DNA of 64,000 nucleotides, from positions 2,830 to 66,829 of the forward strand of contig CAMACY010000004.1 of assembly GCA_945831585.1 (NCBI GenBank), read 5' to 3'. The notes beneath the pieces are model-generated. The model saw nothing but the letters and a program-made list of their open reading frames with translations. It ran no database searches and was not told where the DNA came from. The translations under genes were made by a program, and so were the position numbers. Numbering within the stretch: position 1 is the stretch's first letter; each line of letters begins with the position of its first letter. Origin of the DNA: an uncultured bacterium (GTDB lineage Bacteria; Verrucomicrobiota; Verrucomicrobiia; Verrucomicrobiales; Akkermansiaceae). Shown here piece by piece: positions 4,609 to 10,206 of this stretch.

Positions 4609-5907
4609 ATGGACAAACTCATCGTCGAAGGCGGTCACAAACTGCGCGGAACCCTCAACATCAGCGGTTCCAAAAACGCCTCTCTCCCCATCCTCGCGGC
4701 CGCCCTGCTCACCGACGAGCCCGTGCGCATCTCGCGCGTGCCCGATGTCTCCGACACCAACTACATGCTGCAAATCCTCAGCCAGCTGGGCGCCTCCGTC
4801 GAGCGCTCCAGCGGCACGGTGCGCATCGAATCCCCCGACGGCATCTCCTCCAGCGCCTCCTACGACCAAGTGCGCAAAATGCGCGCCTCCATCTGCCTGC
4901 TCGGGCCCATGATGGCGCGCATGCACCGCTGCACCCTGCCCCTGCCGGGCGGCTGCGTCATCGGCGACCGCCCCGTCGACCTCCATGTGCGCGCCATCCA
5001 GGCGCTGGGCGCCCGCGTGCGCGTCAAGGGCGGCAACCTGCTCATTGACGCGCCCAACGGGCTCATCGGCACCACGGTCGACATGCGCGGCGACAGCGGG
5101 CCCACCGTGCTGGGCACCGACAACCTCATGATGGCCGCCGTGCTGGCCAAAGGCACCACCGTCATCGAATCCGCCGCCCGCGAACCCGAGGTCGTCGACC
5201 TCGCCGACTTCCTCAACAAAATGGGCGCGCGCATCGAGGGCGCAGGCTCGCGCACCATCACCGTCCACGGCGTGGACAAACTCCACGGCTGCGAGCACAC
5301 CGTCATTCCCGACCGCATCGAGGCGGGCACCTTCATGGTCGCCGCCGCCATGTGCAGCGAAGAAGGGCTCACCCTCAACCGCATCTGCCGCAAGCACCTG
5401 AAGGCCATTGCCGACCTGCTGGTCGAGTGCGGGCACAGCGTCGAGTTCAACGAGGAGGGCGACAGCGTGGTCGTCAAACCCGGCGCCCACCCCCGCAGCG
5501 GCAAGATCCTCACCAACCCCTACCCCGGCTACCCCACCGACATGCAGGCGCAGATGACCGCCCTCTTCGCCATCACCCCCGGTATCAGCGTGGTGCGCGA
5601 CACCATCTTCCCGCAGCGCTTCATGCACTGCTCCGAACTCAAGCGCATGGGTGCCAACATCAAGGTCGACAACGGCACCGCCATCATCACCGGGGTGGAG
5701 GGGCTCTCCGCCGCGCCCGTCATGGCCAGCGACCTGCGCGCCAGCGCCGCCCTCGTCCTCGCCGCCCTCGCCGCCGAAGGCACCACCGAAATCCACCGCC
5801 TCTACCACATCGACCGAGGCTACGAGATGCTGGATGAAAAACTGCTCTCGCTCGGCGCTCGCGTACGCCGCGTGCTCGACACCGAAGCCCCCGACTTCGA
5901 GAGCTGA
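4609..5907 (+). CDS. murA: UDP-N-acetylglucosamine 1-carboxyvinyltransferase
   Basis: MDKLIVEGG start, SGSKNASLPIL, LPGGCVIGDRPVDLH (catalytic Cys), PYPGYPTDMQ, SDLRASAAL. Start set at ATG 4609, not at the ORF-track 3022. Confidence 0.96.
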   Translation: MDKLIVEGGHKLRGTLNISGSKNASLPILAAALLTDEPVRISRVPDVSDTNYMLQILSQLGASVERSSGTVRIESPDGISSSASYDQVRKMRASICLLGPMMARMHRCTLPLPGGCVIGDRPVDLHVRAIQALGARVRVKGGNLLIDAPNGLIGTTVDMRGDSGPTVLGTDNLMMAAVLAKGTTVIESAAREPEVVDLADFLNKMGARIEGAGSRTITVHGVDKLHGCEHTVIPDRIEAGTFMVAAAMCSEEGLTLNRICRKHLKAIADLLVECGHSVEFNEEGDSVVVKPGAHPRSGKILTNPYPGYPTDMQAQMTALFAITPGISVVRDTIFPQRFMHCSELKRMGANIKVDNGTAIITGVEGLSAAPVMASDLRASAALVLAALAAEGTTEIHRLYHIDRGYEMLDEKLLSLGARVRRVLDTEAPDFES

Positions 5908-5930
5908 ACCCCTATCCTCCCCCCCCTGTC

Positions 5931-5970
5931 GCCCGCTGCCCCAGCCCCGGGACAGCGGGCGGCGATTTTC
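5931..5970 (+). terminator. Probable terminator hairpin after murA
   Basis: gcccgctg...cagcgggc stem, followed shortly by tttt. Confidence 0.45.
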
Positions 5971-6066
5971 AATAAACCGGCAGTCAAGAGCTAAGAAAGC
6001 TTTTCGTCCAACTTAAAGTCAGACCTTAAATGGGACGAACAGAGCTTAGCGCCCTCCTGCACCGCC

Positions 6067-6111
6067 AAAAAAGCACCCACTCCCCCGGGACGGCGGAGCG
6101 GGTGTGAAAAA
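6067..6111 (-). terminator. Rho-independent terminator of PEP-CTERM gene 1, related to those after genes 2 and 3
   Basis: On the minus strand: acacccgctcc...ggagtgggtgc-tttttt. Confidence 0.7.
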
Positions 6112-6127
6112 GACCGATGAGCTATGT

Positions 6128-6817
6128 TTAGTGGCGGCGGCGGCGAGCAGCCAAACCGGCCAGAGCCAGCAGACTCAGCGTCGCCGTAGCGGGTTCCGGA
6201 GCAACAACCGCCCCGCGAGTGATGGAAATGGTCGTCGTTGTACCGGAGGGAACGTCGACCGTGCCCACGTTCGTCAGCGTTGCATAGTTGAACGTGCTGA
6301 CAATGTTGGTATCGCGCTTGGTGTCGAACGTCACCGAGCTACCTTCGTTGGAGCTAAACTCAATGTAGGGAGTATCCGCATCGGCATTGTAGGTGAGGGT
6401 GAAGCTGAACGTCCAAGGCGCCGAATCGGCCGGCTCCGTGTAAACGACATTGGTCATGCCATACCCCCAACTGTTGGTGCCGATTTCCACCTTCTTATTG
6501 GTCGTACTACCCACATATATCCCGAACTGATCTTTACCCTTAGGATTACCATACGGATCGGATGTACCGAGCAACCCCGTACCCCAAGAATTGGCAAAGG
6601 AAGGAGCCGTGGTGGTGACGGACAGGCTGAAGCTCTCGCTTCCCAGCTCGATCCCGGCATCCGCCAGCGTCAGCGTGAAGCTGCCCGCAAGGGTCGTCGT
6701 GAAGGTTTCCGTCTGGTCAGCATAACTCGTCGTCCGAGTCCAGTCAGCCGAGGTTGTCTCCGCATAGGCGCAAATGCTGCTCACGGCAGCCGTCGCCAAC
6801 ATAATTGTTTTTTTCAT
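6128..6817 (-). CDS. PEP-CTERM sorting-domain surface protein 1
   Basis: Signal peptide MKKTIMLATAAVSSICAYA, Thr/Ser-rich body, C-terminus VAPEPATATLSLLALAGLAARRRRH. Confidence 0.9.
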   Translation of the reverse strand: MKKTIMLATAAVSSICAYAETTSADWTRTTSYADQTETFTTTLAGSFTLTLADAGIELGSESFSLSVTTTAPSFANSWGTGLLGTSDPYGNPKGKDQFGIYVGSTTNKKVEIGTNSWGYGMTNVVYTEPADSAPWTFSFTLTYNADADTPYIEFSSNEGSSVTFDTKRDTNIVSTFNYATLTNVGTVDVPSGTTTTISITRGAVVAPEPATATLSLLALAGLAARRRRH

Positions 6818-6924
6818 GATTGTATTTCTTTTTTGATGTTCCGACTCCCGGAGCAAGTCGCCCTCAGAGCACGCATCGCGTGGATGTTTTTACCGGCGCA
6901 GCTCGGCAAAAAAACCTGCGCGCA

Positions 6925-7180
6925 GGATTGTAAGCATTCTGAATGCTGTAGTCAAGGATTATTTCATGAAAATATCATGCATCGCCTAACGCATTGTTTA
7001 TCAATGCGATATATGCTATAAATCATCTTCATCATCGGGCGCCGTTGCCAAGACACATCGAATCAAATTCACAGAAATTCTTTCGCGCCGCAAAAATCCA
7101 AGCACTTGATTTATTTGCAAACCGCTCAATATAAGAGCCTTACAAAAAGAGAGCTACAGCATTCAGAATGCTTACAATCC
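6925..7180. promoter_or_regulatory. Putative invertible promoter segment 1: 27-bp perfect inverted repeats (6925-6951 and 7154-7180) around a 202-bp AT-rich segment
   Basis: ggattgtaagcattctgaatgctgtag is the exact reverse complement of ctacagcattcagaatgcttacaatcc. Both repeats carry the -10 TACAAT. The -35 TTGACT is complete only on the left (6950-6955, minus strand); the right has AGAGCT. Confidence 0.75.
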
Positions 7181-7285
7181 CCGGCGTGAGGGTTTCTGCC
7201 GAGTTGCGCCGGCAGGGACATCCACAAGGATGCGGGAGGGCTCATGCTGCTTTCTCTGCTCGACAACCATCAAACAAAAAATATC

Positions 7286-7948
7286 ATGATGAAAAAAACA
7301 ACATTGATTTGTGCGGCAACCCTCAGCAGCGTTTGTGCCTATGCTGCAGACATCGTGACCACGATCGAACCCACCGCGTTTGTGAACGGCACCGCAACGC
7401 TCTCCGAGAACTTTGCTCAGACCGCCACCGAGTGGAGCATCGAGACGACGTTTACCTACAAGACGGACACGAAAATGGGCTATTGGGGCACGACGATTCT
7501 GTCTACCGCATCGAACCTGACACAGGACAGCTACAAGGGAGGGTTGCAGGTGTATGCTAGCAAAGATGGGAATCTCGTCGTTAAAGGCTGCGGCTTTGAC
7601 AACGGCACCTCTGGTACAGCCCTGGGCAGCACTCTGACGGCAGACAGCGGCTATACCGTTGTTCTCGATGTGGTGTACAACGACACAGAGAAGAATTATA
7701 CCACATCACTGACCTTGAAGGGGTCTGACGGGGTTAAGATTGGAAACACGGCGACATCGACCTACACCTTCCAGGAAAGCAATGTGATCTCCCATCTTTA
7801 CACGGCTTGCGGTCAGGGTGCGGCAACGTCTTGGAGCGCTCCCTCGGTGACGCTGAAGACGTCGGGCGTATTGGTTCCCGAGCCCGCGACCGCGACGCTG
7901 AGCCTGCTGGCGCTGGCCGGTCTGGCGGCGCGCCGCCGTCGTCACTAA
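7286..7948 (+). CDS. PEP-CTERM sorting-domain surface protein 2
   Basis: Signal peptide MMKKTTLICAATLSSVCAYA; C-terminus VPEPATATLSLLALAGLAARRRRH. Confidence 0.9.
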   Translation: MMKKTTLICAATLSSVCAYAADIVTTIEPTAFVNGTATLSENFAQTATEWSIETTFTYKTDTKMGYWGTTILSTASNLTQDSYKGGLQVYASKDGNLVVKGCGFDNGTSGTALGSTLTADSGYTVVLDVVYNDTEKNYTTSLTLKGSDGVKIGNTATSTYTFQESNVISHLYTACGQGAATSWSAPSVTLKTSGVLVPEPATATLSLLALAGLAARRRRH

Positions 7949-7951
7949 GGA
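7872..7951 (+). repeat. 80-bp direct repeat identical to 9164-9243 (PEP-CTERM anchor coding sequence)
   Basis: tggttcccgagcccgcgacc...cgtcgtcactaagga occurs twice, 1292 bp apart; the downstream terminators are also nearly identical. Confidence 0.9.
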
Positions 7952-7973
7952 ATATTTTTCTCTGTATTTTTCG

Positions 7974-8008
7974 CACCCGCTCCTCCGCCATGGGGGAGCG
8001 GGTGTTTT
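7974..8008 (+). terminator. Rho-independent terminator of PEP-CTERM gene 2 (possibly bidirectional)
   Basis: cacccgctcc-loop-ggagcgggtg-tttt, preceded by T tracts. Confidence 0.75.
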
Positions 8009-8099
8009 GCGCAGGCGATCGCGCAGGGGGGGGCTGCATGTCGCTTGCGGCAAACGACAAGGCGCCATCCGACTGAAGCCCGCCCATCTACCATCCATC

Positions 8100-8335
8100 A
8101 GCTTTTGGAATGCTGTAGTTGCCTGCATACTAAAGATTCACAATCAATATATTGCAGATATTGTAGTATTCAATTTTAGCGTGTCCGGCTGCGTTGTGTG
8201 CGAGCGCTGCTCGTCGCGCCAAGAGAAACTCAGAAAAGAATAAAGAGCCATAATATACTGAGCATGAAGGAGTCGTGAAAAAACCAACATTCTTGACAAA
8301 TCATCCTTGACTACAGCATTCCAAATGCTTAAAAT
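8100..8335. promoter_or_regulatory. Putative invertible promoter segment 2: 19/20-bp inverted repeats (8100-8119 and 8310-8329) around a 190-bp segment
   Basis: The reverse complement of the left repeat (actacagcattccaaaagct) matches the right repeat (actacagcattccaaatgct). The right end forms TTGACT(8307-8312)-17-TAAAAT(8330-8335) facing gene 3. Confidence 0.7.
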
Positions 8336-8409
8336 GCGCTGCGGCGGCGTTATGCCTGCTTAGGGCAGGTGCCCCCTGCACACGGACAACATCATCTCAG
8401 CATTCTGTT

Positions 8410-9240
8410 ATGAAAAATACTCTCCTACTCACGGCAGCCGCGAGCGCTACGCTCAGCGCATTTGCCACAGACACACTCACGGCAGAGGTCACCTCCGGCG
8501 GTGATCTGCTGCATGTTTCAGAATACGGCTATTTTTGGAATCTTCAGGACACAACCGGCGTAACCCGCCCTGAGGGAACAGGAAATGCGTGGGCGGGTGT
8601 TCCCAAAAACAGCGGCAGCACATACCAAAGCGAAGGCAGTGTCTACCAAAAACTCACGACGCAGGGCAACACCGACTACAATCTGCGTCTGGGAGGGGAG
8701 AGTGTCGACTTCACGCTCAGCTCTGATGTCTATATCAACCAGCTGAGCACCGTGAGCGGCCTGACCTCCACGATCATCCGATTCGATGGCGGCACCTTAA
8801 CATCCTCCGGCTCCATGGGTTTCGGTTCCTCCACCATTACCTTAGATGTCAGCGCCATCGCCGCCGAGGGCAATATCTTCAGAACAACGCTGCTGAGCTC
8901 GGATCGCATCTTTGGCTTCGGCACCAAGTTCGACAATCTGACGCTCAGCGGCGGCAGCATGGACTATAAGGGTGTTCTGTTCTACAACCGCAACGCAAAA
9001 AAATATTACAACTCGGCGGATATCAGCATCAGCAATGGCTACTACGGCGTCAAGGATGGCGCGACGGCTGTCACCATCGATCAGTCGGCCTGGGGTTCCT
9101 ACCTCGTGGCTGACATCACGGCTAACAGCGGGGCGTCGATCAAGTCGCTGTCGTACCTGACCGTGGTTCCCGAGCCCGCGACCGCGACGCTGAGCCTGCT
9201 GGCGCTGGCCGGTCTGGCGGCGCGCCGCCGTCGTCACTAA
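8410..9240 (+). CDS. PEP-CTERM sorting-domain surface protein 3
   Basis: Signal peptide MKNTLLLTAAASATLSAFA; C-terminus VPEPATATLSLLALAGLAARRRRH. Confidence 0.9.
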   Translation: MKNTLLLTAAASATLSAFATDTLTAEVTSGGDLLHVSEYGYFWNLQDTTGVTRPEGTGNAWAGVPKNSGSTYQSEGSVYQKLTTQGNTDYNLRLGGESVDFTLSSDVYINQLSTVSGLTSTIIRFDGGTLTSSGSMGFGSSTITLDVSAIAAEGNIFRTTLLSSDRIFGFGTKFDNLTLSGGSMDYKGVLFYNRNAKKYYNSADISISNGYYGVKDGATAVTIDQSAWGSYLVADITANSGASIKSLSYLTVVPEPATATLSLLALAGLAARRRRH

Positions 9241-9264
9241 GGATTTTTTTCATTGTCTTTTTCG

Positions 9265-9301
9265 CGCCCGCTCCGCCGCCATGGGGGAGCGGGTGTTTTT
9301 T
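9265..9301 (+). terminator. Rho-independent terminator of PEP-CTERM gene 3
   Basis: cgcccgctcc-loop-ggagcgggtg-tttttt. Confidence 0.75.
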
Positions 9302-9363
9302 CGAGCAGCGGGGCGCCCCTTTAGGCTTGCGGTGCGGGCATGCTTGGTGTACACTGCCAGGGT

Positions 9364-10206
9364 ATGAAAATGTCTCCCTCTCTCCCTCCCGCGCGGGCGC
9401 TGCGGGGTTTTACGCTCATCGAGCTGATGGTGGTCATCGCCATTTTGGCTGCGCTGGTGTCCATCGCCGCACCGACGATTTATTCCCACATGGGTGCCGG
9501 GACGGAGGCCAAGTGCCGCGCCAATCTCGAGCAGCTTGCTCAGCTGGGTGCCAGGTACAGCAGCGATTTGGCCAATCGCGGCACCCTGCCCACCAGCGGC
9601 ATGAGCGATGACGAGGAGACGCCCCATGTCGACGAGAGCGAGGGTTGGTGGCTCATGCTGGCGCCGGAGCTCGACGCCGTGGTGCTGCCGCAGAAGCCGG
9701 GCGCCAAGATGAAGGTCTCCGCCATCTTCCACTGCCCCGCGGACAAGCGCCACCCCATCGACAACGACTCCACCTTTGCCGCCGACACCAAGAGCATCTC
9801 CTACGTCTCGTGGACGGACGGCAGCGAGGATCGCGACAACCCCAACTCCGGCATCAACACCCGCGCCAAGCAGAACCTCGACATGCTGCCCTGGCTCTCC
9901 GACGGGCTGCCCGTCAAGGGCAAGAGTGTCACCACCGCCGCCGATTTCCGCAAGCAGGTGGCGCCCGCCGCCGAGCGCCACGACGGCAAAATTCTTGTGC
10001 TCTACGCCAGCGGCGTGGTCAAGGCGGTCGACTACGACCCGGAGACGGACAAGGCCGACGCTCTCTTCAAGAAACTGGCTCCCGCGCTGGCCAAGAAGGG
10101 CGCCAAGGGCGGCAAGAAGGGCAAGGGCGGCAAGCAGTCCGCCGAGGACGAGGAGGAGGATAGCGCCGCAGACGAGGCGGACGACAGCGGGGACGACGAC
10201 GCATGA
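9364..10206 (+). CDS. Type IV pilin/pseudopilin-like protein with prepilin cleavage motif and H-X9-DG-like C-terminal motif
   Basis: RGFTLIELMVVIAILAAL; late RH-DGKILVLYA-SG; Lys-rich then acidic tail. Promoter TTGCGG-17-TACACT ends 8 nt before the ATG. Confidence 0.85.
   Translation: MKMSPSLPPARALRGFTLIELMVVIAILAALVSIAAPTIYSHMGAGTEAKCRANLEQLAQLGARYSSDLANRGTLPTSGMSDDEETPHVDESEGWWLMLAPELDAVVLPQKPGAKMKVSAIFHCPADKRHPIDNDSTFAADTKSISYVSWTDGSEDRDNPNSGINTRAKQNLDMLPWLSDGLPVKGKSVTTAADFRKQVAPAAERHDGKILVLYASGVVKAVDYDPETDKADALFKKLAPALAKKGAKGGKKGKGGKQSAEDEEEDSAADEADDSGDDDA

Follow-up and report, generated by a model that had tools for sequence, protein, structure and literature searches.

Two divergent genes for secreted PEP-CTERM proteins, separated by a short segment between inverted repeats, raise the question of whether inversion of that segment decides which of the two proteins is made and, if so, how so small an element could serve genes that face in opposite directions. 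The locus lies at 6925-7180 of the window, by which we mean the whole stretch of 64,000 nucleotides that was analysed, in the genome of a gut Akkermansia, 1.92 Mb in size (63.9% GC, 94 contigs, 97% complete). The features are as follows.

6128-6817, minus strand: gene 1, a 229-aa secreted PEP-CTERM protein (from the ORF list)
6818-6924, minus strand: predicted 5' leader of gene 1, about 100 nt
6925-6951, no strand: left 27-bp inverted-repeat arm, with a -10 TACAAT and a 15-bp palindromic core
6932-6927, minus strand: -10 TACAAT of the left arm, towards gene 1
6933-6947, no strand: left-arm palindromic core AGCATTCTGAATGCT, 15 bp, defined from the arm sequence and the family alignment
6950-6955 (read 6955-6950), minus strand: the single -35 hexamer TTGACT, towards gene 1 in the window
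6952-7153, no strand: invertible segment, 202 bp, AT-rich, 85-88% conserved in the nearest species
7150-7155, plus strand: AGAGCT at the -35 place of gene 2 in the window orientation (TTGACT there in flipped assemblies)
7154-7180, no strand: right 27-bp inverted-repeat arm, with the core AGCATTCAGAATGCT (7158-7172) and a -10 TACAAT
7173-7178, plus strand: -10 TACAAT of the right arm, towards gene 2
7286-7948, plus strand: gene 2, a secreted PEP-CTERM protein of 220 aa (start at 7244 in public gene calls)
8100-8329, no strand: second inverton, of the family type, with arms 8100-8119 and 8310-8329 (19 of 20 positions complementary)
8307-8312 and 8330-8335, plus strand: putative promoter of the second inverton, TTGACT, 17 nt, TAAAAT, facing gene 3
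8410-9240, plus strand: gene 3, a 276-aa PEP-CTERM protein (from the ORF list)

Inverted repeats and promoter hexamers between genes 1 and 2

The sequence 6925-6951 (GGATTGTAAGCATTCTGAATGCTGTAG) is the exact reverse complement of 7154-7180 at 27 of 27 bases, and 100 dinucleotide-preserving shuffles of the window gave no repeat match even when up to three mismatches were allowed. Each arm holds its own 15-bp palindrome, AGCATT-N3-AATGCT, and the left-arm core is presumed to be both the recombinase site and the region of crossover. Read on the minus strand, the gene-1 junction is TTGACT-17-TACAAT; read on the plus strand, the gene-2 junction is AGAGCT-17-TACAAT, the 17-nt spacer being identical in the two. 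The TTGACT straddles the inner edge of the repeat, with TTGA within the invertible segment and CT within the arm. An earlier note on this DNA had described both the perfect repeats around a 202-bp segment and the two unequal junctions, and we verified each of them, coordinates included. In a consensus promoter scan of 5900-9400 the gene-1 junction was among the three best sigma-70-like matches (10 of 12 positions); its TTGACT and TACAAT probably form a working promoter, and AGAGCT at the gene-2 junction is predicted to be non-functional as a -35 hexamer. A weaker promoter-like match, TCGACA-16-TATCAT at 7260-7287, lies just 5' of the gene 2 start and could drive expression of gene 2 independently of orientation.

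The likeness of the arms extends outward at 81% identity to 72 nt (6880-6951 and 7154-7225) and resumes across the signal-peptide regions, so that genes 1 and 2, with their leaders, make up an inverted paralogous pair. The promoter-proximal part of the gene 1 leader (6880-6924) is accordingly 81% identical to the gene 2 leader. No significant structure was found when the leaders were folded (z = -0.65 for the gene 1 leader and -1.85 for the other), and an Rfam search of 5900-9400 returned only a chance miRNA match. The gene 2 leader (7181-7285) differs from that of the nearest species, G015, at about 6 positions in 100 nt, a conservation far above that of the coding regions; the coding regions start to diverge right after the signal peptide.

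Gene 1 starts with an ATG at 6817 (6802 in public gene calls, giving 224 aa), and its exact protein is present in 10 or more public contigs. The two proteins are 30% identical, with a common signal peptide and an identical PEP-CTERM tail, both C-terminal ends reading ...PEPATATLSLLALAGLAARRRRH. Gene 2 passes the TIGR02595 model (18 bits against a cut-off of 16), and genes 1 and 3 give PEP-CTERM family matches just under the related cut-offs with an identical tail (...VPEPATATLSLLALAGLAARRRRH). The C-terminal end is made up of a PEP motif, a transmembrane helix and a basic tail, and an exosortase is encoded elsewhere in the genome (Exosortase_EpsH match on contig C18, 161 bits), as expected of PEP-CTERM/exosortase substrates.

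The 3' ends of genes 1 and 2 (6070-6200 and 7876-8008) also form an inverted repeat, with 73 nt at 85% and 48 nt at 81% identity, which takes in the PEP-CTERM coding part and a GC-rich terminator hairpin (GCACCCGCTCC...GGAGCGGGTG). The same PEP-CTERM and terminator tail recurs 3' of gene 3 and on other contigs, and the sorting signal and terminator appear to behave as a shared cassette.

Inversion of the segment 6952-7153

Public contigs encoding identical gene 1 and gene 2 proteins were compared with the window and with a model in which the segment had been flipped. A 121-kb ENA contig of ERZ27292448 matched 6000-9300 with 0 mismatches after 6952-7153 had been reverse-complemented and with 172 otherwise, and a Logan contig of SRR5666660 gave the same counts over 6000-7901 (0 to the flipped model, 172 to the window orientation). 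Flipped junctions were also present in ERZ8810619 and in contig NODE_667 of ERZ11448883, bringing the flipped form to four independent samples, with no other difference over up to 3.3 kb. A further contig of ERZ11448883, NODE_461, covered 64x, breaks off precisely at 6951, where the repeat meets the segment. The flipped contigs carry TTGACT-17-TACAAT before gene 2 and AGAGCT-17-TACAAT before gene 1. It is exactly the flanked segment 6952-7153 that inverts, as the earlier note had supposed; the note had also proposed that orientation be compared across related genomes or MAGs. This evidence consists, at the focal locus, of consensus assemblies, each giving one orientation, and of one contig break; an exact search of JGI metagenome contigs for either of the gene-1-side junctions found no match.

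Another member of the same site family, the inverton at 9594-9738 of contig C62, has both junction types in a single sample. Contig k141_263667 of ERZ27292446 (L152) is hairpin-like, running from the right flank through the inverted interior and into the right flank again, and so contains both the reference and the flipped right junction, an indication that both orientations of the C62 inverton coexist in that sample.

The gene-1-ON orientation of the window is shared by G015, at 88% identity. The left arm in G015 has one mismatch (26/27), and the equivalent of 7150-7155 reads ATGACT there, not AGAGCT. As this non-promoter end lies one base from TTGACT, exclusivity may be leaky in G015.

Split-promoter geometry in the site family and in the genus

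The repeat arms belong to a family. About 15 site pairs of the form (CT)ACAGCATT-NNN-AATGCT(GTAG), spaced 96-225 bp apart, are present in the genome, and PEP-CTERM genes flank seven of them (both pairs on contig C4, C39, both on C52, C54 and C62). The C2 pair has a large PEP-CTERM-tailed surface protein alongside and the C67 pair a similar large surface protein; further pairs adjoin large autotransporter-like proteins, lipoproteins and a capsule-like locus. Across the genus, 38 of 61 genomes contain the exact 17-mer ACAGCATTNNNAATGCT, for which the controls gave no match, and the 21-mer palindrome, searched for in 185,579 species with one genome each, is nearly confined to MAGs labelled Akkermansia sp., Akkermansiaceae or Verrucomicrobiales, from the guts of horse, goat, sheep, deer, rabbit and other hosts. 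Family-type sites were also seen in three MAGs labelled Negativibacillus, Acetatifactor and Acutalibacteraceae (L020, L117 and L127), L117 with a fragment of a C67-type recombinase; these contigs in Firmicutes-labelled MAGs are most likely mis-binned Akkermansia contigs.

Pairs 90-260 bp apart, pooled from the genome and from fetched loci of many "Akkermansia sp." MAGs, were used to describe the geometry. The centre triplets are inverted between the arms in 86 of 95 pairs, where chance would give 1 in 64. A TTG at the -35 position follows a T-rich tract and, in 84 of the 85 non-redundant pairs, is present on one of the two inner flanks and not on the other, the left in 42 pairs and the right in 42; as a control, the outer flanks were scored in the inward direction, and only 7 of 170 had it. 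Two size classes can be distinguished, one of about 200-225 bp with TTGACT+ACAGC...GCT+TAnAAT and one of about 123-147 bp with TTGCT+ACAGC...GCTG+TAnnnT. They are offset by one base on each side, and the distance from TTG to TA is constant at 23 nt (a 17-nt spacer), a compensation that would be expected of selection on promoter geometry and not on the recombinase site alone. The outer flank usually carries TAnnnT followed by CC(C)G, a context that is likewise enriched behind -10 boxes in other Akkermansia genomes. Inside the invertons lie only the -35-like TTGAC or TTGCT and its T-rich upstream tract, with the -10 at or beyond the repeat edge. A promoter split in this way appears to be the rule for the whole AGCATT-type family. 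The proposal of a single -35 inside the segment with -10 boxes fixed in the repeats therefore gains support from family-wide conservation.

The known invertons of the genus have another core. In published accounts, A. muciniphila is described as having about 30 or more invertons with one inverted-repeat motif, quoted as CGGATT..AATCCG, that are enriched near PEP-CTERM genes, come with no reported linked invertase, and flip in culture, in mice and in humans (PMC11892184; PMC13343947; PMC10028968, citing Jiang et al. 2019). The family is called "inverton group 138" in one of these papers (PMC11892184), and another deals with a cps1 inverton (PMC13343947). Genus genomes of the CGGATT type carry the motif as a 15-bp palindrome, CGGATT-NNN-AATCCG, in 22-97 copies per genome and in inverted pairs. 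The core found here, AGCATTNNNAATGCT, has the same 6-3-6 architecture and differs at 2 of 6 half-site positions. The classical core CGGATTNNNAATCCG has 0 matches in this genome and likewise 0 in G015; conversely, AGCATT-type matches number no more than one in the classical-type genomes G007, G051 and G042 and are absent from several others. This near mutual exclusion of the core types by genome suggests a lineage-specific switch of recombinase and site specificity together. In the counts made by genome, AGCATT-NNN-AATGCT has 23-48 matches in G000 and G015, and CGGATT-NNN-AATCCG, absent from those two genomes, has 56-97 sites on each strand of G007, G051 and G076.

The split geometry recurs with the classical core. 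In some 18 of 22 classical pairs inspected, an xTTGACnn lies directly against the core on one of the inner flanks alone, a single TTGAC being so placed in CGGATT-type pairs of G046, G007 and G051, and classical pairs with a gene on the far side have TAnnnT 17 nt off after flipping (for example TTGACA-17-TAGAAT in G046). Moving a -35 between fixed -10 boxes thus looks to be how the whole genus builds its invertons. The earlier note had singled out the shared -35 as the unusual part of the locus; it is instead standard in the family (84/85 pairs), CGGATT-type invertons included. The split-promoter geometry of Akkermansia invertons was not found stated in the literature searched, a scope that left Jiang et al. 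2019 outside, and a search for split promoters in invertible elements and for toggles between divergent genes returned nothing specific.

A second inverton 0.9 kb downstream illustrates the one-sided form. Its right end faces gene 3, which it would control, and its left arm (8100-8119) faces no gene, so that it should be a plain ON/OFF switch, predicted ON in the window; the three other assemblies seen have it in the same orientation. The absence of a gene beyond that far arm also rules out paired promoters or operators as an explanation of the repeats. A palindromic transcription-factor operator as their sole cause was rejected on the same ground and on the inversion of the segment in other assemblies. 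Outward ORFs with signal peptides on both sides, the arrangement taken to indicate a toggle, were found in about four credible cases among the 85.

Focal locus: the PEP-CTERM pair of genes 1 and 2
Contig C3, 17361-17510: two divergent paralogous lipoprotein genes
Contig C60, 3970-4200: a capsule-like locus, the two sides carrying a Wza-like lipoprotein and a 620-aa membrane protein respectively
L130, 904-1048, in Akkermansia MAG JAZSQS01: a different PEP-CTERM pair

What sets the focal locus apart would be only the presence of a good -10 and a gene beyond both arms, by which an ON/OFF switch becomes an either/or toggle.

The geometry also bears on a reading in which the inversion is real but expression is set by a whole promoter, or by some other element (a terminator, for example, or a site bound by a protein), in the segment or the leaders, with TTGACT being an extension of the recombinase site. 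Some family sites, among them C2 71249, are palindromic throughout, with CTTGCT...AGCAAG included on either side, which means that TTG(C/A) could be part of what the recombinase recognises, and weak promoter-like matches occur within the segment as well as at 7260-7287. A recombinase half-site should, however, be found on both inner flanks, whereas TTG stands on one alone in 84 of 85 pairs; its 23-nt distance to TA is kept across both spacing classes and the CGGATT-type core; and the TAnnnT with CC(C)G of the outer flank is the context found behind -10 boxes genome-wide in the genus. We regard this reading as improbable.

Candidate invertase, proposed mechanism and known systems

No serine recombinase (Resolvase, PF00239) was matched in the 97%-complete genome, against 12 of 14 control genomes with a match. 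The genome encodes seven tyrosine recombinases: two Xer-like, one phage-like and four paralogues of 325-357 aa that are 36-47% mutually identical and carry the motifs SKTGG...IPLR and LRH(S/T)FA(S/T)YH. These four lie on contigs C67, C26, C35 and C48, none of them within the window, and on contig C67 (4277-5531) a distance of 34 nt separates the start of the recombinase gene from the middle of a family site. Homologues of the C67/C26 type (48-54% identity) occur in 12 of 115 site-centred windows, where a rough estimate of the chance expectation is about 1, and in 10 loci from at least nine MAGs they start 26-95 nt from the site (L036, L052, L070, L101, L108, L113, L117, L120, L043 and L128). 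From this synteny, a tyrosine recombinase of the C67/C26 clade is likely to be the invertase, acting in trans on all sites; the chemistry of tyrosine recombinases is consistent with a palindromic core whose asymmetric centre has to be inverted in the partner site. Inspection of MAG loci by eye showed, for most of them, a -35 directed towards the recombinase gene, and the invertase may itself be phase-variable.

Without a dedicated invertase, the segment could in principle be flipped by general homologous recombination across the promoters and leaders of the inverted paralogues (27-72 bp), given that the arms reach 72 nt at 81% identity and the genes are an inverted duplicate, and sap promoter inversion in Campylobacter fetus is said to depend on RecA. 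This is very unlikely here: a conserved palindromic core with inverted triplets is found at some 15 loci of this genome and in dozens of species, in most cases with no paralogous flanks beside it, the second inverton has arms of merely 20 bp, and the recombinase clade is syntenic with the family sites. Scarcely credible is the absence of any biological switching, a reading in which the repeats are paired operators or left over from an inverted duplication and the flipped contigs reflect misassembly or fixed differences between strains, since the single consensus orientation per assembly at the focal locus, which would allow it, is set against four flipped samples that are otherwise identical, a MEGAHIT label k141 that, if it gives the final k-mer size, far exceeds the 27-bp repeat and means that flipped junctions must exist in the reads, the 64x assembly that breaks exactly at the repeat edge, the two junctions of the C62 inverton in one sample, and the flipping of the homologous A. 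muciniphila family in culture and mice (PMC11892184, PMC13343947).

The site-specific switch is accordingly the reading we prefer, and we hold it with considerable confidence: the focal locus would be a member of an Akkermansia-wide inverton family whose promoter is split by the recombination site, giving either/or expression of surface proteins through an invertase of the C67/C26 clade. The 15-bp core in each arm, its asymmetric centre triplet inverted between the arms, would be where a tyrosine recombinase from that clade performs the inversion. Core plus two bases would make up the 17-nt promoter spacer, the -10 TACAAT at the outer arm edge would stay put, and only the -35 (TTGACT, after an A/T-rich tract), just inside one end of the 202-bp segment, would move. 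The window orientation would give a complete promoter to gene 1 and inversion a complete promoter to gene 2, with mutually exclusive transcription of the two as the predicted outcome; a given cell lineage would then show on its surface just one of the two exosortase-sorted PEP-CTERM proteins, which are 30% identical to each other. A broader generalisation is more tentative, and we would sooner doubt than accept it as a whole: that invertons genus-wide are promoters cut by the crossover site and act as toggles wherever a second -10 and a gene lie beyond, that a master recombinase may be phase-variable and self-limiting, and that AGCATT and CGGATT specificities were swapped along with the recombinases.

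Akkermansia is a leading next-generation probiotic candidate, and its invertons have already been linked to capsule production and gut colonisation. The present analysis contributes four points: animal-gut lineages of the genus use a recombination site of a second type; a precise promoter geometry would explain how some 200 bp (120-320 bp in the family) can govern a gene on one side or a gene on each; the focal locus is a concrete case of a predicted either/or choice between two PEP-CTERM surface proteins; and a clade of candidate invertases can be named, where published surveys named none. For annotation, tools that seek a whole promoter within inverted repeats will under-call regulation of this kind and miss the gene on the "other" side.

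Among known switches, E. coli fimS with FimB and FimE and the invertible promoters of Bacteroides carry a whole promoter inside the element and turn one operon ON or OFF. Like them, the focal element is short and intergenic, is probably flipped by a tyrosine-type enzyme (as in fim and for several Bacteroides Tsr enzymes) and concerns phase variation of surface structures; unlike them, it has its crossover site as the promoter spacer and the -10 outside the moving part, TACAAT standing in both fixed arms and only TTGA moving. Salmonella Hin is a serine invertase whose switch works via an operon-encoded repressor, not by a promoter moved between two genes. The likeness to Hin/hix lies in two surface antigens alternated by one inversion and in palindromic recombination sites, whereas the present genome has no PF00239 match. 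Closer in layout is sapA of C. fetus, where an invertible segment between two opposed paralogous surface-protein genes gives either/or expression and antigenic variation. The sapA segment is kilobases long and carries a complete promoter, and its inversion, studied by Dworkin and Blaser in the 1990s, is reportedly RecA-dependent and takes place in conserved 5' coding sequence; the Akkermansia element has a 202-bp segment and 27-bp sites, a dedicated tyrosine recombinase is likely and only the -35 moves.

The nearest relative is the A. muciniphila inverton family, said to be attributable to Jiang et al. in Science in 2019. In both, the short inverted repeats contain a 15-bp palindrome centred on ATT-NNN-AAT, the invertible segments measure about 120-320 bp and are numerous in each genome, PEP-CTERM, autotransporter and capsule genes are enriched nearby, no linked invertase has been reported, and one inner flank has a single TTGAC directly against the core. 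They differ in the core, CGGATT-NNN-AATCCG there and AGCATT-NNN-AATGCT here, and in that the focal locus has its -10 inside the perfect repeat and a gene on each side, which makes it a toggle. The kind of inverton was known already, and the focal locus is a member-like variant of it, not a new kind of system; what is new is the AGCATT core in animal-gut Akkermansia lineages, a split-promoter geometry that is made explicit and extends to the published family, the predicted toggle between two genes and the candidate invertase clade.
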